From positions 18,369 through 82,368 of the IMG/VR virus record IMGVR_UViG_3300037470_000126: a DNA stretch of 64,000 bases. One strand, written 5' to 3'. A program made the position numbers and the translations under genes. The stretch comes from a virus. Its lineage: Duplodnaviria; Caudoviricetes. Below are positions 5,322-59,947 of the stretch, piece by piece; position 1 is the first letter of the stretch; every line of letters begins with the position of its first letter. A model generated the notes under the pieces. The model made no database searches. It was given only the letters and a program-made list of their open reading frames with translations, and was not told where the DNA came from.

Positions 5322-5350
5322 ACGTTACGCCTGTCGTCGGAACGTGTCAA
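5322..5350 (-). promoter_or_regulatory. Sigma70-type promoter
   Basis: TTGACA-17-TAACGT. Confidence 0.75.
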
Positions 5351-5402: not shown

Positions 5403-5416
5403 GATACCCGGGTATC
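5403..5416. repeat. CCGGGTATCC box, palindromic variant GATACCCGGGTATC
   Basis: Related copies near 7141, 8188, 9607, 10209, 11869 and 12609. Confidence 0.8.
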
Positions 5417-5633
5417 TACGGGCCAGCTAGCGGCGCTTAGAAGCGAAAAGCTCTGTGCGCTCCTCTCGGCGCCTCTCAGACGCTCGCCGAAGAGAGACAC
5501 GCGCGACGTACTGAGAGCTCCTTAGAAGCGCGTACAGGCGCCCTAACGCACGTATTGCGCGCTCTCGATCGCTCACACTCGCAGACATGCGAAAAGGCGC
5601 CCCTCTCGGGACGCCCTCTCTAATCGGGTCGAG

Positions 5634-7019
5634 TCACTCCGCGGCGGGCAGTTCGTCAACGATGGCGCAGCGGGTGAGCTGGGTGGACTTCATGCCCTCC
5701 CACTCCTTGTGCGCCTTCACGGAACCCTTGATCACGTAGCGGGCGCCGATCTCCTCGCCCAGGGTGTCGTTCGAGGCGAACCACTTAACGACGTTGCCCT
5801 CCTCTGTGATCATGGTGTAGAGGGTGGTGCTGCCGTAGTCGCTGTCCAGGTACTTGATGGCCTTGATTTCAACGGTCAGCGTCTCGCGGCTGCCCTTCAC
5901 ACCCGCTGCCTTGTCAGGCGCGGTACCGATGAACTCAGAGGCGGCGTACACGCTGGCCTCACGCTCACGGATCAACGTGCGCTCCAGGTGCTTGGCCCAA
6001 GCCTGCGGGGCAGAGGCGAGGAGGCCGATGTTGCGAGCGGAGACCATCTTGCCTGCGGCAACAGCCTTCATGTTCAGGACGTAGTCAGACGAGCCGGAGA
6101 AGTCGTCGGACAGGATGAACGCGAGAAGCTGGGCAGCCTTGTCGGCAGCCTCGTCGGCAAGCGGGGCGATCTTCGCGGCCCACTCGCGGTCGTGCTTGCT
6201 CTTGCTCGGCGAGAGGGCGGTCATAACGTCGCCCTTCGTGGTGTTGCCGTAAGAGCTGGCGGGCTTGAACCCTTCAAGCTTCACGCAGGCCCAGGCAACG
6301 GCGAGGACGGTCAGCGGGTTGTACTCACGCTCACCGGCTCCCCCGAAGAACGAACCCTCCTCGTCGTCGTCTCCGGACAGCTCGGGGAAGGCAATGGTCG
6401 TGTACTGCCCGGTGAAGTCCTTCAGGCAAGAGCTACCGACCTGGAGCATCTCGCCGGACTCCTGGTTGCGTACGACGTAGGTCACGAGGCGCTGGCGCGT
6501 AGTGCGGCAGTGGTCGCACCAGCCTTCGGTCACGGAGTCGCGGTTCACGCCCTCGACACCCGGGACGGAGCGCACGATCAGGCCAGCGTTCGCGTCCCAA
6601 TCAAGCTTGGCGATGAACTCCCACCCGTTGTACGCGGGGGCGTTGCCGGTGATCTCGACCTTGTACTCGGTCCAGGTCTCGGTGATCTTGGTGAGTTCGT
6701 TGGTCTCGGTGACCTCGACCTCTTCGACGCTCATGGACAGCGTGCCGGCGAGGCCCTTACGCTCGGCGCGGGCGTTGATCTTGTTCAGCTTCTCCTGGGT
6801 GGCGAGGAGCTGGAAGTGGTCGATGCGAGCGCTCATGGCGATCTCGCGGACGGTCACGTCGGTGACAGCCTGGATGGTGTGGGACGGGGTGACGGGCGTC
6901 TGGATCTCGGTGGCGAGCGGCTTAACAACGGGAGCGGAGACACCCTTCGCGGCGGCCTTGCGGCACGCGGCACGCGCGCTCTTGGTCTTCGGGTGGGTGC
7001 AGTTCGCGTGGGCGCTCAT
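5634..7019 (-). CDS. 461-aa hypothetical protein with N-terminal HCHC module, CxxC zinc motif and OB-like C-terminus
   Basis: HANCTHPKTKSARAACR at N-terminus; CDHC...SSCL; GAGGAG RBS; own promoter. Confidence 0.85.
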   Translation of the reverse strand: MSAHANCTHPKTKSARAACRKAAAKGVSAPVVKPLATEIQTPVTPSHTIQAVTDVTVREIAMSARIDHFQLLATQEKLNKINARAERKGLAGTLSMSVEEVEVTETNELTKITETWTEYKVEITGNAPAYNGWEFIAKLDWDANAGLIVRSVPGVEGVNRDSVTEGWCDHCRTTRQRLVTYVVRNQESGEMLQVGSSCLKDFTGQYTTIAFPELSGDDDEEGSFFGGAGEREYNPLTVLAVAWACVKLEGFKPASSYGNTTKGDVMTALSPSKSKHDREWAAKIAPLADEAADKAAQLLAFILSDDFSGSSDYVLNMKAVAAGKMVSARNIGLLASAPQAWAKHLERTLIREREASVYAASEFIGTAPDKAAGVKGSRETLTVEIKAIKYLDSDYGSTTLYTMITEEGNVVKWFASNDTLGEEIGARYVIKGSVKAHKEWEGMKSTQLTRCAIVDELPAAE

Positions 7020-7057
7020 GTCGGGCTCCTCGTCTCGTCGTGTTCTCTCTTGAGAGA

Positions 7058-7086
7058 AGCTTACCAAGTGAAACCGCACGATGCAA
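7058..7086 (-). promoter_or_regulatory. Sigma70-type promoter
   Basis: TTGCAT-17-TAAGCT. Confidence 0.7.
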
Positions 7087-7198
7087 GGCGGGAGCGAAAG
7101 TCGTGTGCGCCCATCTCACGGCGCTATCCGTGCCCGAGGAATGCCGGGTATCCGCCCCTCCCGATCAAGCGTCACACGCCCGTACAGAGCCTTGGGCC

Positions 7199-7210
7199 GT
7201 ACCACACCCA
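7199..7210 (+). repeat. GTACCACACCCA 12-mer
   Basis: Exact copies at 19360 (minus strand), 31812, 38605 and 63861. Confidence 0.8.
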
Positions 7211-7287
7211 ACGTGTGTGCCGGCAAGCTAGCCCGTCCACGAGAAAGGGCCCCGTAGGGCCCCTCTCTGCTACTCTCTCGCCCCCTC

Positions 7288-7719
7288 TCAGTCGGCGAGG
7301 CGGATGTTCCCCGTCAGGTAGTCGCTGGACGAGTACAGCGCGCGCTGGACGGCGCTCTCGGCGTTGGGGTCGATCTGGAAGGCGATGCGCCACAGGCGCT
7401 TGCCGGGCTGGCTCTTGCTGTCCTGGACATAGTCAAGCTGGCCGGTGATCTCGCGGAGGACAACACCCTCGGGCAGACGGTGGTCGTCGTACTTGGCCCA
7501 CCCGGTGACCTTCGTGCCGGCTCGCATCGCAGCGGACAGCTCCTCGTCGGTCAGGGGGGTGAAGCCGGCGATGGTGCTACGGATCTTGCGGCAGTTGGCA
7601 CGGGCCTTCTTCGTGCTCTGGTGGTCACACGCGGCGTGCGAGGTGCCGGCCTTCAGGTACTGCGAGAGGGTCAGGGGGGTCTCGGTGACGGTGGTCTCGG
7701 GGGCGGTGTTCTCAGTCAT
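7288..7719 (-). CDS. Hypothetical protein with HCHC module
   Basis: HAACDHQSTKKARANCR; GAGGAG RBS. Confidence 0.85.
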   Translation of the reverse strand: MTENTAPETTVTETPLTLSQYLKAGTSHAACDHQSTKKARANCRKIRSTIAGFTPLTDEELSAAMRAGTKVTGWAKYDDHRLPEGVVLREITGQLDYVQDSKSQPGKRLWRIAFQIDPNAESAVQRALYSSSDYLTGNIRLAD

Positions 7720-7748
7720 TGTGTGCTCCTCGTGTTGTCGTTGGCACG

Positions 7749-7777
7749 ACTCTAGCATGCCCGTGGCGGTCGTCCAA
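7749..7777 (-). promoter_or_regulatory. Sigma70-type promoter
   Basis: TTGGAC-17-TAGAGT. Confidence 0.65.
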
Positions 7778-7786
7778 GGGGTGAAT

Positions 7787-8101
7787 TCAGGGGCGCATGT
7801 CGTCGGCGAGGATCTCCCACTCGCCCATCAGGCGGGCGGTCTCGTGGACGAGACGAACGGCGAGGGCAGGGTTCCAGTCGGCGAGGCGGTACCCGTGCTC
7901 CTGGGCGACCTCGTCAAGGGTGATGCGGTGGATCATGTTCACGCAACCCTCGGCGCGGGCACGACGGACGAACACGAAGGTGTGGTTAACGATCGTGGCG
8001 GTGGTCTCCTTCACACGCTCACGCCGGCAAGCGGAGCGGGCGGCCTTCGTGGCCTCGTGCTGGCAGCGGCTGTGGTCGGTGGTCTTGCGTGTCGTCGTCA
8101 T
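7787..8101 (-). CDS. Hypothetical protein with HCHC module (probably leaderless)
   Basis: HSRCQHEATKAARSACR; ATG 7 nt after the -10. Confidence 0.85.
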   Translation of the reverse strand: MTTTRKTTDHSRCQHEATKAARSACRRERVKETTATIVNHTFVFVRRARAEGCVNMIHRITLDEVAQEHGYRLADWNPALAVRLVHETARLMGEWEILADDMRP

Positions 8102-8107
8102 GTGACG

Positions 8108-8137
8108 ACCATACACCCTGCCGGCGGTCCCGCGCAA
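8108..8137 (-). promoter_or_regulatory. Sigma70-type promoter
   Basis: TTGCGC-18-TATGGT. Confidence 0.6.
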
Positions 8138-8280
8138 GGGGAGCCCAGAGGCCGTGTGTGCCCGTCTAACGATGGCAGCGGCACGGAGGTATGCCGGGTA
8201 TCCTCTGTCCCGCGTCGGCTCTCAGAAGCCGGCTCAGCCACCGAGAAACCCGCTTGCGCGGGTTCTCTGCTGGGTGCGGC

Positions 8281-8538
8281 TCAGTGGCGGACAGCGGCGA
8301 TGATCTCTTCCACGTCCTTCGTGTTGTCGTAGTACCCTTCGATCAGGGCGGAGTCAATGGCTCCCAGACCGAAGATGATCTCATCGGCGTCGGCGCTGTT
8401 GTCGTAGTACGAGGCGACGAGGGCGGCGATCTTCGTGGCGGTCTCAGTGGCACGAGCCTTGCGAGCGGCGCGGCACTTGGCGCGGGCGGTCTTGGTAGCG
8501 GGGTGGAGGCAGTCGCTGTGGTTCGTGTTCGTCTTCAT
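8281..8538 (-). CDS. Hypothetical protein with HCHC module (probably leaderless)
   Basis: HSDCLHPATKTARAKCR; ATG 7 nt after the -10. Confidence 0.85.
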   Translation of the reverse strand: MKTNTNHSDCLHPATKTARAKCRAARKARATETATKIAALVASYYDNSADADEIIFGLGAIDSALIEGYYDNTKDVEEIIAAVRH

Positions 8539-8544
8539 GTGAGA

Positions 8545-8574
8545 ACAGTACCACGGCCCCACCGGCGAGTGCAA
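8545..8574 (-). promoter_or_regulatory. Sigma70-type promoter
   Basis: TTGCAC-18-TACTGT. Confidence 0.65.
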
Positions 8575-8642
8575 GGGCACAACGCGAGAAAGGGCCTCTC
8601 CCCTTTCGAGAAAGACCCTCGCTCTTATGTGGATTCAGGCTG

Positions 8643-9008
8643 TCAGGCCTCGACAGTCTCCGCGTAGGTGCAGGAGATGGTGGTGCGCTTGGTCTTGCCC
8701 TCGTCGTTCACGTAGTTGATCCACTGCTTACCCCACCCGGAGATCTTGACGCCGGTGGCGACCTCGGACTCCTCGTCGTCGGTCAGGCGAACAGCGATGC
8801 GGACGGGGGTCTCGCGGAACTCCCTCCAGTTCTCAGCGGTAACGCGCACCGGCTCGAACACGGGGGCGGGAGTCTCGATGGTGGTAACACCCTCGGCGGC
8901 AACGGTGGAGAGCATGTCGGCGAACTTGGCGCGGCTCCGACGGCACTGGGCACGGGCGGCCTTCGTGCTGACGTGCTCGCAGTTCGCGTGGCTCTGGATC
9001 TTGGACAT
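8643..9008 (-). CDS. Hypothetical protein with HCHC module
   Basis: HANCEHVSTKAARAQCR; C-terminal domain similar to 11326..11715. Confidence 0.85.
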   Translation of the reverse strand: MSKIQSHANCEHVSTKAARAQCRRSRAKFADMLSTVAAEGVTTIETPAPVFEPVRVTAENWREFRETPVRIAVRLTDDEESEVATGVKISGWGKQWINYVNDEGKTKRTTISCTYAETVEA

Positions 9009-9049
9009 TCTGTGCTCCTCGGTTCGTGTCGTTCTTGCTTACAGGGATA

Positions 9050-9078
9050 ACACTACGCACTCAGCGCCGGGCCGTCAA
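9050..9078 (-). promoter_or_regulatory. Sigma70-type promoter
   Basis: TTGACG-17-TAGTGT. Confidence 0.75.
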
Positions 9079-9208
9079 GGCCAGCTCACGGTTTCTTTCA
9101 AGATTCTTTAGGTTGCCACAATCCCTGCTACAGAAAGGCTCTGTGCGCTCGCCAGTGAGCCGGCACCCTCTCCCCGGAGGTACCGGCTCGGCTGACCCTG
9201 CTAAGCGC

Positions 9209-9463
9209 TTACGCGCCGGCGTGAGGGTTGAGAAGGCGCTCCATGAGCCGGTTGGTCAGCTCACGCGCCACCTCCTGCTCGGTGACGGCGTAGACACGAG
9301 ACGCGGCAGCGTGGAGCTCCGCTACGTCCCACACCTCCCCGAACTTCTGATCCATCGTGGCGTCGGAGAACTCCTTGACCACTGCCGTCATCGGCTCGTG
9401 GATCAAGGGGACCAGCTCGGTGATCAGTTCATCTAGGCGGCGGGATTGATCGGCAGAGAACAT
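9209..9463 (-). CDS. Hypothetical helical protein
   Basis: AAGGGAG RBS and own promoter. Confidence 0.75.
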   Translation of the reverse strand: MFSADQSRRLDELITELVPLIHEPMTAVVKEFSDATMDQKFGEVWDVAELHAAASRVYAVTEQEVARELTNRLMERLLNPHAGA

Positions 9464-9501
9464 GGCACACTCCCTTGTGTACGTTCGGTTCCTACTCGAC
9501 T

Positions 9502-9530
9502 ACAGTACCGCGGTGAGAGACAGATCACAA
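9502..9530 (-). promoter_or_regulatory. Sigma70-type promoter
   Basis: TTGTGA-17-TACTGT. Confidence 0.55.
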
Positions 9531-9751
9531 GGGGGCGCACAGGGGGCGCACGGAGCACGAGGGGCGCACGCACACACGGCCGTCTGACGGCCTCAGTGTC
9601 CGCGGTGGGTACCCGGCATACCTCCGCCTCGTTCAGGCTCTCAGAAGCCCGTACAGGCTTGATCGGCAGATCTCAATATGGCAACGTTGCCAGCTCCCAA
9701 ACGAGGAAGCCCCTCCCTCTTTCGAGGTCGGGGCCTTCCCTAACAGTTTGG

Positions 9752-10060
9752 TTACTCGGCGGCGCGGGCCTTGCGGCAGATCGCGCGGTCCTTCTTGGTC
9801 TTCGGGTGCTTGCACGCTGCGTGGCTGGTGTGGGACTTGGCGATCCCGTTGGAGTGACCCTTCGCCGGCGGCGTGGTCTCAGGGTCGGGGGCACCCTGGC
9901 AGATCAGGCAGTCATCCTGGGCACCCTCGGTCTCGTGGCTCTCGTCACTGTGGGTGTTCTCGTGACCCTGGTAGTCGTAGCAGGCTTCGCAGATGTTGCC
10001 CTCAAGCAGGTCGGAGGAGACGGGGCGGAAGGTGCAGTAGGTGCAAAGCTTGCGAGCCAT
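9752..10060 (-). CDS. Cys/His-rich protein with C-terminal HCHC module
   Basis: CTYC, CEAC and CLIC motifs; ends HAACKHPKTKKDRAICRKARAAE. Confidence 0.85.
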   Translation of the reverse strand: MARKLCTYCTFRPVSSDLLEGNICEACYDYQGHENTHSDESHETEGAQDDCLICQGAPDPETTPPAKGHSNGIAKSHTSHAACKHPKTKKDRAICRKARAAE

Positions 10061-10106
10061 TTGGATCACTCTCTCTGGTTGGTGTTGCTCTGTGCTGATA
10101 GATAGA

Positions 10107-10135
10107 ACATTACACGGGTCCAGTGGCTAGCGCAA
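10107..10135 (-). promoter_or_regulatory. Sigma70-type promoter
   Basis: TTGCGC-17-TAATGT. Confidence 0.65.
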
Positions 10136-10315
10136 GGCCTGGCAACGTTGTCATTGAAAAAATCTTGAGGAGGCCTGTACGGCGATCTGACGCCGGCAGC
10201 CTCTCGCCGGTATGCCGGGTATCCGGCGGCACCGCTGGGCTCTTAGGCGGGCTCTCAGAGCCTCGCTCATGCGAGTGCCCCCGCCCTCTCACGAGGACGG
10301 AGGCTCTCTGATCGG

Positions 10316-10711
10316 TCAGGCGTTACGCTGGCGACGGCACGCGGCTCGTGCGCTCTTGGTCGCGGCGTGATCACACTCGGCGTGAGCGCCACGCACACCC
10401 ACGACCTTCATCTCCTTGACGACAGGTGCGGCAGCGGCCTTCTTGGCGGTCTTCTTCGCAGCCGGCGACGCCTTGTCCAGAGCCTCCGTGCAGCGGCTCT
10501 CGGGGTGGATCTGACGCTGGCGGGCGTCAAGCTCCCAGCCTCCCGTGATCTCGAAGCCACAGAGGCCACAGAGGGGGTTGCAGCGGTAGCAACGGCCGTT
10601 CTCGTCAACCTCGCACACGGTGTCGAGGCAACAAGTGGTCTCGCCGTCCTCGTCGGTCTCGGGGTCGATGGTCTGGCAGGTGGTGCAGTGCTTGGACATC
10701 GGGTCGAACAT
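10316..10711 (-). CDS. Cys-rich protein with C-terminal HCHC module
   Basis: Several CxxC motifs; ends HAECDHAATKSARAACRRQRNA. Confidence 0.85.
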   Translation of the reverse strand: MFDPMSKHCTTCQTIDPETDEDGETTCCLDTVCEVDENGRCYRCNPLCGLCGFEITGGWELDARQRQIHPESRCTEALDKASPAAKKTAKKAAAAPVVKEMKVVGVRGAHAECDHAATKSARAACRRQRNA

Positions 10712-10750
10712 CTGAGGCTCCTTGCTCGCTCGGTCTTGCTTACGAGTAGA

Positions 10751-10779
10751 ACACTACGGCATACGTGGGACCGTGTCAA
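10751..10779 (-). promoter_or_regulatory. Sigma70-type promoter
   Basis: TTGACA-17-TAGTGT. Confidence 0.8.
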
Positions 10780-10870
10780 GGACGTGAGCGAGAATCTTCC
10801 ACACAAGCCTGTGACGTCCGAAAACCCCGTCTCACTAGTGAGAGCGGGGTTCTCTGCCAGGGTCAATATG

Positions 10871-11008
10871 TCAGTATGAGCAGTTCTCGCAGGTCCCGTC
10901 CTCCTCCAGGTGCGTCTCACAGGTCGAGCAGAAGTGGATCTCATCGCGGCAGATCTCGATCGGGCAGCCGACCAGACCCTCAAGTGACATTTCGATCTCG
11001 AAGTCCAT
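10871..11008 (-). CDS. 45-aa acidic zinc-ribbon-like protein (not in the ORF track)
   Basis: MDFEIEMSLEGLVGCPIEICRDEIHFCSTCETHLEEDGTCENCSY; AAGGGAG RBS and own promoter. Confidence 0.75.
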   Translation of the reverse strand: MDFEIEMSLEGLVGCPIEICRDEIHFCSTCETHLEEDGTCENCSY

Positions 11009-11049
11009 TGTCTTCTCCCTTGTTTCGCTCTCTCTTGCTTACATGGACT

Positions 11050-11078
11050 ACTTTACGCGACTGACCCGGGGCCGTCAA
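11050..11078 (-). promoter_or_regulatory. Sigma70-type promoter
   Basis: TTGACG-17-TAAAGT. Confidence 0.75.
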
Positions 11079-11325
11079 GGCAGATCAGTGGTTTTCTTCA
11101 AGATTCTTTTGGAAGCTCTGTGTGCCCGTCTAAGCGCCTGTCAGACACTCGCCGGCAGTCTCGTACGCTCACGCGCTCTCGTGCTCTCACATCGCCGTCT
11201 AGGACGTCTCAGGCGCGTCTCTAGGGCTCTCGCACTCACGACACGCAGACTTGTGCCGGCTCAGACATGCGAAAGCCCGAGAGACTGTCTTAGCTCTCTC
11301 GGGCTCTCTAATCGTGCTGGGCAGT

Positions 11326-11715
11326 TCAGTTGGTCAGGCGGACGCTGTCCTCCTCGATCAGGTCGGCAACGGGGCGACGGACGGTCTTGCCGTCCTCGTT
11401 CTTGAACTGGATGTTCCGCTCGCTCCAGCCGGTCAGCTCGGTGGCGATCACGTCGCCGTCGGTGAAGCGGAGCGTAACGCCGCGGCCCTTGTACTCCTTC
11501 CAGTTCTCGCGGTGCAGGACGAGGGCGTTGACGGAGATGTGAACGCGGTGCGGAGCCGGCATGAGCATCTTCGGGCCGTTCATCGCAGCCTCAACGGCGG
11601 CAAGAATCGGGTTGGCGATCTCGACGGTGGTCGCCTTCTTCATTGCGCGGCGGCAGGCAGCGCGGGCAACCTTGGTGGAGGGGTGCTGGCAGGCGGCGTG
11701 AGAGAAGCGGGCCAT
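11326..11715 (-). CDS. Hypothetical protein with HCHC module
   Basis: HAACQHPSTKVARAACR; GAAGGA RBS. Confidence 0.85.
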   Translation of the reverse strand: MARFSHAACQHPSTKVARAACRRAMKKATTVEIANPILAAVEAAMNGPKMLMPAPHRVHISVNALVLHRENWKEYKGRGVTLRFTDGDVIATELTGWSERNIQFKNEDGKTVRRPVADLIEEDSVRLTN

Positions 11716-11765
11716 TTGGATCATTCCTTCGGTTGGTGTTGCGCTCTGTTGTGCTGACATGGATA

Positions 11766-11794
11766 ACACTACGGCACTCCGCGTGCTCCGTCAA
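11766..11794 (-). promoter_or_regulatory. Sigma70-type promoter
   Basis: TTGACG-17-TAGTGT. Confidence 0.75.
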
Positions 11795-13341: not shown

Positions 13342-13383
13342 CGTGCTCTCCCCTCAGGCCCGTCTCTCGGGCTCACGTCTACG

Positions 13384-13412
13384 ACTATACACGGTGCCGG
13401 CTCTCGTGACAA
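13384..13412 (-). promoter_or_regulatory. Sigma70-type promoter
   Basis: TTGTCA-17-TATAGT. Confidence 0.7.
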
Positions 13413-13480
13413 GGACGCGCCGGCTCAACCGCCGAGAGAGGGAGTCTCGTGATGCTGTGAGACTCCCTCTCTCTACTCAG

Positions 13481-13765
13481 TCACCCAAGATCGCCGGCGT
13501 TGTACGTAGGCTCTTCGCCGGTCTCGTGGACGTGAAGCTCTTCCGCGTATGCAGCTTCGAGCTTGTCAAGGATCATGCGAAAGATCACGAGTTCAGCGCC
13601 TCGCTTAGCCTTCGGGTCCTTGATGTCAGCAGTAACCTTCTCTGCCTCTCGCTCGATGAAGTTCTCCGCGATGCTTGCCGCACCTTCAGCGCCGATCACG
13701 TTGATCATGTGATCGAAAGCCTGTCGCGCTTCATCCGTCGTGAGCCTGTTAATGCTCTCGCTCAT
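13481..13765 (-). CDS. Hypothetical helical protein
   Basis: GAGGGA RBS, own promoter. Confidence 0.75.
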   Translation of the reverse strand: MSESINRLTTDEARQAFDHMINVIGAEGAASIAENFIEREAEKVTADIKDPKAKRGAELVIFRMILDKLEAAYAEELHVHETGEEPTYNAGDLG

Positions 13766-13833
13766 GTGACTTCCCTCTGTTGAGTTAACAATCGCCTTGC
13801 TCTGTGAGCCGGTCTCGCTTGCTCACGAGAAGA

Positions 13834-13862
13834 ACACTAGCCGGCTACAGCCGGCTTGTCAA
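13834..13862 (-). promoter_or_regulatory. Sigma70-type promoter with palindromic spacer
   Basis: TTGACA-17-TAGTGT; spacer region AGCCGGCT-GT-AGCCGGCT. Confidence 0.8.
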
Positions 13863-14060
13863 CACGTTCACGAGAGAAGTTGAGAAAGCTCTGTGCGTAC
13901 GTCTGAAGCTCTCTCGCGTCGCTCTCGTCTCTCAGCACGTACGCGCTCTGTGAAGCGCTCACAGACGCTCTCACACGCGCTCTCGCGTCGCTCTGCTGTC
14001 TCTGCTCTGTGTCGAGAACGCGCACGTCAGAGCACGTCTCAAAAGATCTTGAAACTTTTC
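13854..14060. other. 207-bp tract with no CC or GG dinucleotide, between divergent promoters
   Basis: Read base by base; last GG is 13853-13854, next CC is 14060-14061. Confidence 0.9.
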
Positions 14061-14072
14061 CTCGCTACTTCC

Positions 14073-14101
14073 TTGCATCGTAGCGAGGAAGCGCGTAGTG
14101 T
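14073..14101 (+). promoter_or_regulatory. Sigma70-type promoter
   Basis: TTGCAT-17-TAGTGT. Confidence 0.75.
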
Positions 14102-14213
14102 CTTACTCAGCAGCACAGAACGACGCAAGACACGCAAGACAGTACAACTGATCTTTGACAACTCAACAGAGTGTGAATCGCAAGAAACGACACACAACAA
14201 CAGGAGTCAGACA

Positions 14214-14474
14214 ATGACGACTAAGCGTTTCTCTCACGCGAACTGTGCTCACGCTTCCTCGAAGGTAGCGCGTGCGAAGTGCCGGCGTGATCGTGCGAAG
14301 TTCGCTCAGATCCTCTCAGACGAGATCTTGAACCACGAGATCGAGACTCAGGAGATCATCCCGAACCCGATCATGGATGAAGTGAGCGCCATGATCAACG
14401 GCCCGAAGATGCTGGAGATGGGCAAGAAGGGTCGGGACACGCTTCGCAAGCGTGCCGCGCGTGCCAAGAAGTAA
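14214..14474 (+). CDS. Hypothetical protein with HCHC module (inverted cassette)
   Basis: HANCAHASSKVARAKCR; AGGAG RBS. Confidence 0.85.
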   Translation: MTTKRFSHANCAHASSKVARAKCRRDRAKFAQILSDEILNHEIETQEIIPNPIMDEVSAMINGPKMLEMGKKGRDTLRKRAARAKK

Positions 14475-14484
14475 CTAGTAGAGA

Positions 14485-14514
14485 AGCCCTGAGAGCTAAC
14501 ACAGTCTCAGGGCT
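14485..14514 (+). terminator. Terminator hairpin homologous to 11274..11305
   Basis: AGCCCTGAGA...TCTCAGGGCT. Confidence 0.65.
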
Positions 14515-14674
14515 TCTCGGCGTTCTCTGACGCTCTCGCGTATGCGACTCGACACAGAGCACACGAGACGCGCGTTAGGCGATTACACGCGCTCTCAGGA
14601 GCTCTCACATACGTAAGAGAGCGAGAGACATACACGCTCTGTCTCTCGCTCCCTATCACGCGCTCACGTCATTC

Positions 14675-14944
14675 TCAGACGTTGATACCCGGGATCCCGC
14701 TCCAGTGCTCGCTCTCGATGCCGACGGCACTCGGGTCTACTTGCCAGTAACCCTCGCAGCCGATCACCACGACCAGCTCACCCCGGGCAGCGTCGAACAG
14801 GATCCAGTGATCGGCAGCGCCGAAGTCTTCCCCGATCACTCCCTCGCACTCCGTGCACTTCGTGGTGGTCAGGATCTCGTTCGTCCCGCTCTTGAGCGCG
14901 TCATCCACCACGCTCAAGTAAATGAGTGTACGGGCGTCTCCCAT
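14675..14944 (-). CDS. Hypothetical protein with CxxC motif
   Basis: CTEC...H...CEG; GAGGGAG RBS; own promoter. Confidence 0.75.
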   Translation of the reverse strand: MGDARTLIYLSVVDDALKSGTNEILTTTKCTECEGVIGEDFGAADHWILFDAARGELVVVIGCEGYWQVDPSAVGIESEHWSGIPGINV

Positions 14945-15948: not shown

Positions 15949-16713
15949 TCAGTGCGTGGCGTTCCAGGCTGCCACGATCTTCTTTACGTCCTCTGCGGTG
16001 AAGACGTAAGAGCCTCCGGCGCTCTGCTGGAAGTTGCGACCTACGGCCCACTTACGAAGCCACGCACGGAAGTTCTTTGCCGGCACACCCATCGCGGCTG
16101 CGACCTCAGGCGCTGAGAACGTCTTAGGAGCGCTCTCGTCAGTCGATGCGAGAGTCTGTGCCGGCGCTGCCTGCGAGGCGCTTACAGGAGCGCTCACGCG
16201 CTTCTCGGGCATACTCACGACGACCGGAGCGACTGTGTCAACGAACGTGATAGCCGCGGCGGCGATCCTCTCGTCTTTCGGCAGGTAAGAGAGGCCCTTC
16301 CAGCACGGCGGGCAGTAGTAGAAACGGCCACCCGTGGGAGCCTTCGGCTTGCGGTGCTTGGAGTAGCGCTTCCCGCACGAGTGCTCGGCGACCCAGCGGC
16401 CTTCGGGCATGTCAGCCTCAGTGCACGGCTTGGGATCCACCACGCCCAACTGGATCGCGACTGCCTGCCACTCGGGACCGTGCTTGGCTCCCGGCGTCAG
16501 GGCGTGGGCAATCTCGTGCCGGCACGTCTGCTCCACGTGCTCACGGTCGTGGCGGTCGACGTACGCGACGGACAGGAGGAGTTCCTTAGGGCCGTACTTG
16601 CACAGGCCCAGGGTCCTCATGCGATTCATCCAAGCGAACCGCCATCCCTGCTCCCACAGACCGTACTCCTTGATTAGGTGGGTCATCATCTGTGCGGCTT
16701 CTTCTCTATTCAT
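15949..16713 (-). CDS. SprT-like zinc metalloprotease with C-terminal HTH-like domain
   Basis: LGLCKY, HEIAHAL (HExxH), HGPEW, HSCG...YYCPPC. Confidence 0.85.
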   Translation of the reverse strand: MNREEAAQMMTHLIKEYGLWEQGWRFAWMNRMRTLGLCKYGPKELLLSVAYVDRHDREHVEQTCRHEIAHALTPGAKHGPEWQAVAIQLGVVDPKPCTEADMPEGRWVAEHSCGKRYSKHRKPKAPTGGRFYYCPPCWKGLSYLPKDERIAAAAITFVDTVAPVVVSMPEKRVSAPVSASQAAPAQTLASTDESAPKTFSAPEVAAAMGVPAKNFRAWLRKWAVGRNFQQSAGGSYVFTAEDVKKIVAAWNATH

Positions 16714-18198: not shown

Positions 18199-18720
18199 AC
18201 CCTTCATTCCCACTCCCGCCGTGGACTGTTCGTGTCGTCCTACTCGCGTGCGCGCGTTCGTTATATGCCCGTACGCGCCTGTGATGATCTTGTTTCCCAG
18301 CTCTAAATGTGGGTGTGATCTGAGTCACGTTTTGATGATCAACTCCTGTCGTTCTCCACCTGGATGCTCCAGTCTCGCACTTGACAGAGACGTTATGCTG
18401 TACTTCGTATCGCCTCGCGACGAAGCGGCTCCGCCGCCGACGAGAGCGCGACGCCCGCAGGGCGCAGCATAACGATCCTCTGCAAGGCGACTTACCGATC
18501 ATGAAACCTGCTGATCAGGACGTTACGCTCACAGACAGTGACGAGATCGTATCGTTCTCAAGATCAGAACACTTCAGAACACAAGCGAAAAACAAGCGCT
18601 TGACGTGCAGGAACATTGGTTCTGTCCCCAAATGTCTGAATTACTCTCGGTGATCTAGCGCTCTTCCCTTCACAGACTGTTACTGTGGGCCGACGTCTGA
18701 TATACTCGTGCCGATAGGCC

Positions 18721-23395: not shown

Positions 23396-24030
23396 GTGAG
23401 CTAGAGATCCTAGACAGTATCACTGTGGTGATCCCCGTACACCCCGAACGTGTCCGTAACGGTATGCTAGAGCGTGCTCTTAGCTCTGTGAGAAGTCAGA
23501 CACTGCCGGCGGACGAGATCATCGTGGTTGAGGACCATGAGGGTCAAGGAGCCGCCAGGACCCGCCATCAAGGCCTCATGGAAGTAACCTCCGAATGGGT
23601 GGCCTTCCTGGACTCCGATGATGAGTTCCTGCCTCGTCACCTGGAGAGGCTCATGGCTTGTGCCCAGGAGACCGAGGCGGACTTTGTATACTCGTGGTAC
23701 AAGATCAAAGGTGCCTCGGATCCCATGCCTAACCGCTTCGGCAAGGCATGGAACCCAGATAAGCCCGCCCTAACCACCATTACCGTAATGGTTAAGACCC
23801 AGCTAGCCCAACGAGTGGGTTTTCACCCTGACCCCAACCGCGTTAAGAATAGCGGTGAGGACATGATGTTTGTCCGCGGGTGTAACAGTCTGGGTGCTAA
23901 GATTGTGCATCTCCCAGAGAGGACCTGGGTATGGCACCATCACGGCGGCAACACATCAGGCCTGAACACTCGGGGTGACGCGGTACCACCAGCACCCGTC
24001 AAGGGGCGTAAGAAGGGAAGGAGGAAGTAA
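23392..24030 (+). CDS. Glycosyltransferase family 2
   Basis: VVIP, IIVVED, WVAFLDSDD, GED. Confidence 0.92.
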   Translation: MSELEILDSITVVIPVHPERVRNGMLERALSSVRSQTLPADEIIVVEDHEGQGAARTRHQGLMEVTSEWVAFLDSDDEFLPRHLERLMACAQETEADFVYSWYKIKGASDPMPNRFGKAWNPDKPALTTITVMVKTQLAQRVGFHPDPNRVKNSGEDMMFVRGCNSLGAKIVHLPERTWVWHHHGGNTSGLNTRGDAVPPAPVKGRKKGRRK

Positions 24031-59299: not shown

Positions 59300-59947
59300 T
59301 CACACTCGGCGCAGGAACGAAAAGCCAATGCCCTCATTTCCATTCACGCACGTCTGGAGAGCGATATCCGCACCCTTCCCGTTCTCGGGAAACATCTTGT
59401 TGGATGAAAACCCGTTGTCATACACACGGTATGTGCCGGCAAGCTTTCCGCTGGAGATCACAACCTGCCGGCCCACCGGCAAGTCATCCATCCAGTACCA
59501 CCCCTTGTAGTCGTGGCCTCCGAGCGTTGTTACACCTGCGGGATAGTACAGGACTAGACCCCCCTTGTCAATACACGGCTGAGCTTCACTCGCAGACGCA
59601 CCGCAGTACGTGTATCCCGAGATGTACGTCACGCGCTCTGTCGTCGTTCGCTTCTCACGAGAAGCACCGTTAGGAGCGCTAGATGACTCGCTAGGCGTCG
59701 GTGACACGCTCTCGCGTGTCTCGCTTCGCTCTCGCTCTGCCGGGCTCTTAGAAGCGCTCTCAGAGCTTTTCACCGGCGAGGGCGTCACGACAGGTGCGGT
59801 GCCCTCAGTCGGGAGGGTCTGTCCCACACCCACCGGTCGTGTGTCTTCTGTCGAGGGCGCCGAGATGAACGGGTTAACGATCGGCACCACCGTCAGAGCT
59901 ACCCCGCCGGCAATCCCCGCCAGCACAATCCGTACAGACTTCCTCAT
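59300..59947 (-). CDS. Membrane-anchored sortase-like protein
   Basis: TM, S/T/P linker, LGGHDY...L.VG..V...Y.V...IALQTC. Confidence 0.55.
   Translation of the reverse strand: MRKSVRIVLAGIAGGVALTVVPIVNPFISAPSTEDTRPVGVGQTLPTEGTAPVVTPSPVKSSESASKSPAERERSETRESVSPTPSESSSAPNGASREKRTTTERVTYISGYTYCGASASEAQPCIDKGGLVLYYPAGVTTLGGHDYKGWYWMDDLPVGRQVVISSGKLAGTYRVYDNGFSSNKMFPENGKGADIALQTCVNGNEGIGFSFLRRV

Follow-up and report, generated by a model that had tools for sequence, protein, structure and literature searches.

A 207-bp phage spacer free of CC and GG is conserved in dinucleotide composition while its sequence diverges

The non-coding DNA directly upstream of a small leftward gene of a Streptomyces phage contains neither CC nor GG over 207 bp, and the homologous DNA of related lineages keeps the same bias even though its sequence has diverged widely. 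The tract lies in a window of 64,000 nucleotides, the whole stretch of DNA that was analysed, which corresponds to bases 18369-82368 of an 82,368-bp viral record. It is possible, with a probability of about 0.35, that the tract serves as a phased, protein-bound or wrapped architectural or regulatory element upstream of a promoter. The evidence for this tentative reading is presented below together with several alternatives.

The nearest cultured relatives are the Streptomyces phages KimJongPhill and Zuko (Zukovirus), with approximately 72-80% nucleotide identity over patches of the sequence. Both are siphophages assigned to cluster BR in the Actinobacteriophage database (PMC10690885), and as judged from this similarity the source phage is itself a cluster BR, Zukovirus-like Streptomyces siphophage. 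Comparison with KimJongPhill places the tract in the right arm, an array of small leftward genes, each of which has its own near-consensus promoter (TTGACA, 16-18 nt, TA...T) and usually its own hairpin as well. The original prediction located the tract at the point of divergent early transcription, which is correct locally and in 3 of the 11 lineages studied, namely those with an inserted cassette of opposite direction, but not genome-wide. The genes on either side of the tract are leftward in the remaining 8 lineages, and the genome-scale divergence of transcription is found away from the tract, at 18.2-18.7 kb of the window. The 507-bp intergenic region at this divergence of the leftward right arm and the rightward left arm contains another CC/GG-free run of 92 bp (18518-18610), which is A/T-richer than the main tract and includes AA and TT, and thus differs from it in composition.

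The tract fills essentially the whole 210 bp between two divergent -35 boxes (Table 1). It starts at the -35 box of the leftward promoter, an abutment that is found in all lineages, and ends 12 bp short of the rightward promoter. The leftward promoter hexamers, TTGACA and TAGTGT, occur without mismatch in 8 of the 11 lineages; promoters of the TAGTGT type, including this one, are missed by a sigma-70 scan based on the TATAAT consensus and were found by a separate scan. The sole CC/GG occurrences between 13854 and 14203 are contained in the perfect inverted repeat that overlaps the rightward -35 box, and the leader that follows this promoter is unlike the spacer in composition.

Table 1. Coordinates of the CC/GG-free tract and of the features surrounding it in the window
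Feature	Position	Strand	Details
94-aa acidic protein gene	13481-13765	-	homologue of KimJongPhill gp105 and Zuko gp103
Leader of the leftward gene	13766-13833	-	carries conserved CACAGAGC and AACTCAACAG motifs
Leftward sigma-70/HrdB-type promoter	13834-13862	-	TTGACA 13862-13857, 17-nt spacer, TAGTGT 13839-13834
CC/GG-free tract	13854-14060		207 bp, 55.6% G+C
Promoter-proximal spacer-module copy	13884-13980	-	nhmmer E = 6e-13
Left duplication copy	13902-13982		80 bp, 60% identical to right copy 14526-14606
Inverted expression cassette	13983-14525	+	~540 bp; module end, promoter, leader, gene, terminator
Perfect 11-bp inverted repeat (TTCCTCGCTAC / GTAGCGAGGAA)	14058-14090		overlaps rightward -35 box
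Rightward promoter	14073-14101	+	TTGCAT 14073-14078, 17-nt spacer, TAGTGT 14096-14101
A/C-rich leader	14102-14213	+	without CC/GG until AGGAG ribosome-binding site 14201-14205
86-aa basic protein gene	14214-14474	+	N-terminal His/Cys (HCHC) module; paralogue of several array genes
Terminator-like hairpin	14481-14518		perfect 14-bp inverted repeat, 3' of the + gene
Terminator-proximal spacer-module copy	14519-14674	-	nhmmer E = 3e-23; includes hairpin 14616-14654
Upstream gene, 89 aa	14675-14944	-	homologue of KimJongPhill gp106; the spacer module is the region past its 3' end

The base content of the tract itself predicts 32.5 CC/GG, and none is present, in agreement with the original estimate of about 30 expected. 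Under a first-order Markov model of the window, the probability of finding no CC/GG in 207 nt is 5.8e-16 per start, or ~4e-11 once 64,000 start positions are allowed for. This is the longest CC/GG-free run of the whole 82,368-bp genome, followed by runs of 116 bp (14087-14203, adjacent to the tract) and of 92 bp at the genome-scale divergence; in simulated genomes (n = 200, Markov-1) the longest such run had a mean of 61 bp and a maximum of 97 bp. The same genome-wide test gave no comparable outlier run for any other complementary dinucleotide pair. The depletion was also said to continue to about 14340, and indeed only 9 CC/GG are found against 38 expected in 14061-14340, these being at 14060, 14071 and 14087 (hairpin/-35), at 14203 (ribosome-binding site) and within the opening codons of the + gene. 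Outside the tract the genome has normal observed/expected ratios (0.92 for CC and 1.00 for GG), and the intergenic regions elsewhere in the array are mostly normal as well (0.8-1.2). An independent metagenome contig (run X6) spans 13361-14051 with zero differences, and no variants, joints or molecule ends were seen among the contigs of X6, X7, X8 and X10 at this region, which are low-depth, window-identical pieces.

The comparison across lineages included the window, KimJongPhill, Zuko and eight metagenomic lineages that were retrieved via homologues of the 94-aa protein (64-81% amino-acid identity). In all 11 lineages the minimum of CC/GG density within ~6 kb lies directly upstream of the leftward -35 box, approximately -60 to -310 from the gene start of the 94-aa homologue, so that each of the ten other lineages is most depleted at the homologous site, as anticipated if relatives keep the bias. 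CC/GG-free runs extend over 203-211 bp in the three lineages with the insertion and over 48-100 bp in seven lineages that do not have it (observed/expected 0.10-0.22), and the depletion is weak in the most divergent lineage, L006 (56 bp, 0.35). The tracts are 50-82% identical in pairwise comparisons and thus diverged at 18-50% of sites, and they hold 0-8 CC/GG per pair where random substitution predicts 11-27; for most lineage pairs, none of 2000 substitution simulations was as low in CC/GG as observed. To judge from these alignments, shared sequence alone does not account for the bias, which is maintained by selection or else by some highly unusual process acting locally; this supports the selection that was originally proposed.

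The transition/transversion ratio of the tract is 0.66, similar to the 0.63 at third codon positions, and it therefore appears that the region is free to evolve except for the rule on dinucleotide steps. On the same ratio, conservation of the purine/pyrimidine pattern as such was rejected. Measured from where the terminator stem (CGCTCT) ends, the spacing to the -35 box comes in two classes, 118-122 bp in five lineages and 131-133 bp in two, a difference of approximately one helical turn, and the indels that separate the lineages are concentrated at 9-12 bp. As 2-bp gaps account for only 1 of 31 internal gaps, an origin of the tract by dinucleotide slippage was rejected. A protein-coding tract was also rejected, since its period is 2 and not 3 and the gap totals of the lineages are not multiples of 3; promoters fall inside the open frames of the region.

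CC and GG are not the specific target of the bias that they were first taken to be, because AA, TT, AT and TA are depleted too. Pooled over lineages, the observed/expected ratios of the depleted steps are 0.18 for GG, 0.27 for CC, 0.44 for both AA and AT, 0.53 for TA and 0.70 for TT, and the enriched steps are GA, AG, CG, TC, GT, GC and CT; the window tract has one AT and two TA. Lag-1 identity is 0.04-0.16 and lag-2 identity is 0.44 (0.34-0.49) versus 0.24 genome-wide. The DNA is thus made of short alternating pairs such as GAGAG, CGCG, GTGT and CTCTC, with a strong period of 2. The words GCTCTC and CGCTCT of the + strand read GAGAGC and AGAGCG in the sense of the leftward gene, and in this sense GAGAGC occurs 30 times versus 8.0 expected from dinucleotide content and AGAGCG 31 times versus 7.4, with pooled z-scores of ~9 that are inflated by shared ancestry, the lineages not being independent. 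The complement GCTC is not enriched, and the excess of words is accordingly in one orientation. The best-conserved word block, GCGCACAGAGCTT, lies just upstream of the -35 box and is missing from L008 and L009, yet both lineages keep the bias.

In the window, words of the GAGAGC type are placed at -132, -122, -110, -98 and -87 from the -35 box, and 18 of 52 intervals between such words are 10-13 bp long. Spectral peaks are found at 9.75-10 and 11.25 bp, chiefly in the purine/pyrimidine pattern. The periodicity of the window tract ranks second among 244 sliding control segments and is modest in the other lineages (top 4-17% of control segments); weak/strong bases give just a faint signal at 10-10.5 bp (pooled power 4.2 versus a median of 1.3). 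The statement that the tract is not a tandem repeat was only partly right: a degenerate phased repeat of ~10-12 bp appears to be present, of which Tandem Repeats Finder reports just 2.2-2.7 copies of 10- and 12-bp units with scores of 33-40.

Three options for the tract were offered in the original prediction, and among them a wrapping site for a protein appears to fit best, because of the ~10-11-bp purine/pyrimidine periodicity, the phased GAGAGC words and the 9-12-bp indels. The tract would then be a cis-acting DNA spacer in a right-arm array of small, self-contained early-gene cassettes, where it separates one cassette's terminator from the -35 box of the promoter that follows. Selection would act on dinucleotide steps, with no same-letter steps and few A/T-A/T steps being allowed; the spacer also carries oriented GAGAGCG words, often ~10-12 bp apart. 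A DNA-binding protein of the phage or its host, or a topoisomerase, may coat the spacer or wrap it, and such a candidate would respond to the shape of the DNA and to short phased words instead of a long specific sequence. The bound spacer could set the activity or the insulation of the adjacent promoter or promoters; both the binding of a protein to the tract and its effect on transcription are what we infer.

A word array alone cannot explain the avoidance of CC/GG at filler positions. A related reading, possible though doubtful, is that of a shape code, in which the only genus-wide invariant would be the absence of same-letter steps, above all CC/GG, combined with loosely phased GAGAGCG words. 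Such a code might be read by a candidate phage or host factor, or by the mechanics or topology of DNA, and would control immediate-early transcription.

The layout of the tract resembles that of iteron or operator arrays and of strong gyrase sites, the new aspect being conservation by composition and not by sequence. Iteron and centromere-type arrays are cooperatively bound, with the DNA wrapped. Such arrays, including the 11-bp repeats of R1 parC that are recognized by ParR and the omega heptads of pSM19035, are 100-200 bp long and abut or flank a promoter, and the tract appears to share with them short oriented direct repeats approximately one helical turn apart. The repeats of the tract, however, are far more degenerate, with dinucleotide composition being conserved and the unit sequence less so; in addition, the phage is of lytic type without a partition system, and the cognate protein of the tract is presumed. 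Strong gyrase sites (phage Mu SGS, pSC101 and BIME/REP) are likewise long, degenerate and helically phased, and are located downstream of transcription units. The gyrase motif, as defined in E. coli, is a degenerate 130-bp signal with phased variation in G/C content (PMC6379681). The ancestral spacer, at 118-133 bp from terminator to -35 box, is of similar length; however, the period of the tract is mainly that of purines and pyrimidines with a faint weak/strong signal, and the host is Streptomyces, whereas the motif is that of E. coli. Repeated non-coding elements at gene boundaries are also represented in actinobacteriophages by the cluster A stoperators and the cluster K start-associated sequences, but these are 13-17 bp long and conserved in sequence, whereas the present element is 120-210 bp long, conserved in composition and diverging in sequence.

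No earlier description was found in the literature on Zukovirus, on homodinucleotide avoidance or on Z-DNA upstream of phage promoters. Usually it is conserved sequence that reveals non-coding control DNA, whereas here the whole genus keeps a strict dinucleotide rule at one site upstream of a promoter (CC/GG virtually absent, other same-letter steps scarce) and up to half of the sequence changes. Should this rule be read by a protein or through DNA topology, the tract would provide a clear and easily testable case of a phage early-gene switch with indirect readout, based on DNA shape, and it might also be of use in Streptomyces engineering as a portable insulator or regulatory part. As Zuko and KimJongPhill are cultured and recodable, the question is directly testable.

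An unlikely alternative is that the tract is a torsional buffer of non-B DNA, in which alternating CG/CA stretches (Z-prone) and GA/TC runs would absorb the negative supercoils that arise upstream of strong promoters, divergent ones in this case. Runs of purine-pyrimidine alternation, each 8-14 bp long, make up 7-35% of the tract versus 2.2% genome-wide (3-16-fold), same-letter steps break alternation, and the tract lies directly upstream of near-consensus promoters, between divergent ones in the window lineage. CG tracts upstream of active promoters are known to flip to Z-DNA in vivo (the twin-domain model), and the likeness to Z-DNA-prone promoter-upstream tracts consists of alternating CG/CA runs at a place where negative supercoils arrive. 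However, the runs are short for Z-DNA and interleaved with GA/TC blocks, alternating steps make up exactly 50% of all steps in the tract, and the Z-breaking steps GA, AG, TC and CT are the most enriched. Folding of the tract as single-stranded DNA is no better than that of shuffled sequences (z = 0.5), the excess of oriented GAGAGCG words is left unexplained, and the energetics of Z-DNA do not single out CC/GG for exclusion.

The history of the spacer can be traced by comparison with KimJongPhill and Zuko, which do not have the rightward unit and possess a single ~280-bp intergenic region between the gp105 and gp106 homologues. Two segments of the window, 13702-13982 and 14524-14767, both align to this one region with an overlap of ~80 bp, and 13902-13982 and 14526-14606 therefore represent a diverged duplication, the two 80-bp copies of which flank the inserted cassette. 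The cassette is common to 3 of the 11 lineages (the window, L008 and L009), with orthologous genes in L008 and L009 (72-74% amino-acid identity), and is absent from KimJongPhill and Zuko. According to these alignments, an inverted cassette was inserted into the spacer and enlarged it in the window lineage; in the ancestral layout the tract is preceded by a terminator and followed by the next promoter of the same direction. The length of the 207-bp run is explained by this insertion, as it left a duplicated module that fills the 210 bp between the divergent promoters. In Zuko (75651-75908), L011 (2042-2296) and L012 (2173-2304), a small gene of the opposite strand is located beyond the gp106 homologue and is not homologous to the + gene of the window, and inverted cassettes thus seem to have entered this neighbourhood more than once.

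A profile search (nhmmer) with the ancestral spacer of the relatives identified copies at 14525-14637, 13884-13980, 5446-5552 and 11112-11307, which accordingly constitute a small family of terminator-to-promoter spacer modules. The terminator-proximal module of the tract locus has 9 CC/GG versus 32.5 expected, and the paralogous copies are only mildly depleted (observed/expected ~0.6). The paralogues at 5446-5552 and 11112-11307, both on the minus strand, each follow a terminator hairpin, start near TTTCGCATGTCTG and end near GCGCACAGAGCTT. The promoter at 5350 has a perfect, operator-like palindrome, GATACCCGGGTATC, at 5403-5420, which separates its -35 box from the spacer module; this palindrome is absent upstream of the promoter of the 94-aa gene. 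Weak profile matches at 59600-59790 and 16113-16196, the latter within an SprT-like gene, contain CGCTCT clusters and the same period-2 pattern as the tract.

It is conceivable, if improbable, that the tract is a non-functional by-product, that is, cryptically simple DNA arising from duplication and deletion of ~10-12-bp units and from exchange between paralogous modules, with the absence of CC/GG merely reflecting the founder unit. The multi-copy module family, the 9-12-bp indels between lineages, the 80-bp duplication and cassette insertion inside the tract and the short 10- and 12-bp repeats would all be in line with such an origin. However, substitutions at up to half of the sites should long have introduced many more CC/GG than the 0-8 observed per pair, and module copies of the same genome tolerate CC/GG, indicating that homogenisation does not enforce the rule. 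In addition, phage genomes seldom retain 120-210 bp of useless DNA across a genus.

A less probable scenario is a signal-free insulator, selected to hold nothing that starts, stops or nucleates between a terminator and a strong early promoter. It would exclude promoter-like hexamers (which need TT, TA, AA or AT), Shine-Dalgarno-like GG, ATG, A/T-rich Lsr2 sites and U-tracts, and the joint depletion of AA, TT, AT, TA, CC and GG is what it predicts. As the host has ~72% G+C, the A/T-richer intergenic DNA of the phage is a likely target of the Lsr2 silencer. However, a shorter spacer would suffice for this purpose and avoidance of CC would be unnecessary, neither the phased oriented words nor the 10-11-bp periodicity is predicted, and the other spacers of the array are normal in composition.

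The tract is quite unlikely to be a replication origin or a pac site, read through its phased repeats by an initiator or the small terminase. Phased short direct repeats do extend over 120-210 bp beside a strong promoter, and the genome is probably headful-packaged, so that a pac site must exist somewhere. However, the repeats are degenerate, the terminase genes are ~8 kb from the tract, and the primase/helicase region is remote from it. An origin had been among the original options and is unsupported, since no AT-rich unwinding element was found in the ancestral form of the spacer and no GC-skew switch at the tract, GC skew on the whole being uninformative. A terminus or first-injected segment, named in the same option, finds no support either: in the records of both KimJongPhill and Zuko the first base is base 1 of gene 1, and near-full-length metagenome contigs of relatives open at differing points, from which it follows that the genome is probably circularly permuted and without a fixed end. 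A fixed genome end at the tract was rejected on these grounds; in KimJongPhill the position of the tract is ~7 kb from the arbitrary end of the record.

Avoidance of an enzyme, whether a CC/GG-directed nuclease, a methylase or another modifier, or an unmodified window in a genome modified at CC/GG, was the remaining original option and is very improbable. Depletion is strongest for CC and GG, and the constraint has been maintained in evolution. However, the rest of the genome is normal in both steps, the loss of AA, AT, TA and TT, the oriented GAGAGCG words and the helical phasing are left unexplained, and the glycosyltransferase and methyltransferase clusters of the relatives, going by their annotation, look like functions of virion glycosylation and not of DNA modification.

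Least probable of all is an RNA element, either a non-coding RNA with a defined structure or, on one of the strands, a rut site at which Rho would load, despite the CUCUC-rich antisense strand, the position of the module directly after a terminator hairpin and the use of (UC)n as an artificial rut site, since the tract had no Rfam match (a permissive threshold gave only the two tRNAs and one chance miRNA match), its RNA folding is no better than that of shuffled sequences (z = 0.0), the RNAalifold consensus of 7 relatives supports the terminator hairpin only with an unfavourable covariation term, and the antisense strand is read by no known promoter. A Rho utilisation site in particular was rejected because the sense strand has more G than C and the antisense strand has a C/G ratio of 1.3 with zero CC; as Rho binds CC as well as UC, a rut site would not ban CC.

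The small proteins encoded on both sides of the tract gave no informative Pfam, PHROG or PDB match in sequence searches, and for the 94-aa protein no Pfam or PHROG family was found. The product of the + gene, which matches only PHROG families of unknown function, has an N-terminal His/Cys and basic module in common with several leftward genes of the array (5634-11769) and a strongly basic C-terminus, and it has 6-8 paralogous tblastn matches in KimJongPhill and Zuko. Next after gp106, a glycosyltransferase-methyltransferase-glycosyltransferase cluster is present in KimJongPhill, Zuko and most metagenomic relatives and absent from that place in the window phage (window 14945-15282 compared with KimJongPhill 76059-78532); a related fragment matches on the other strand at 23596-23698 of the window. 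With respect to the leaders, CACAGAGC looked like an operator, with copies in the leader of the leftward gene and also upstream, but was rejected as one because L008 and L009 retain the bias without it. The two divergent leaders share a AACTCAACAGAG block as a 17-bp inverted repeat pair that is 88% complementary (14150-14172 and 13775-13791). The rightward block is preceded by TCTTTGACAA, which is boxA-like, and the AACTCAACAGAG block is kept in nearly all relatives, immediately ahead of the ribosome-binding site.
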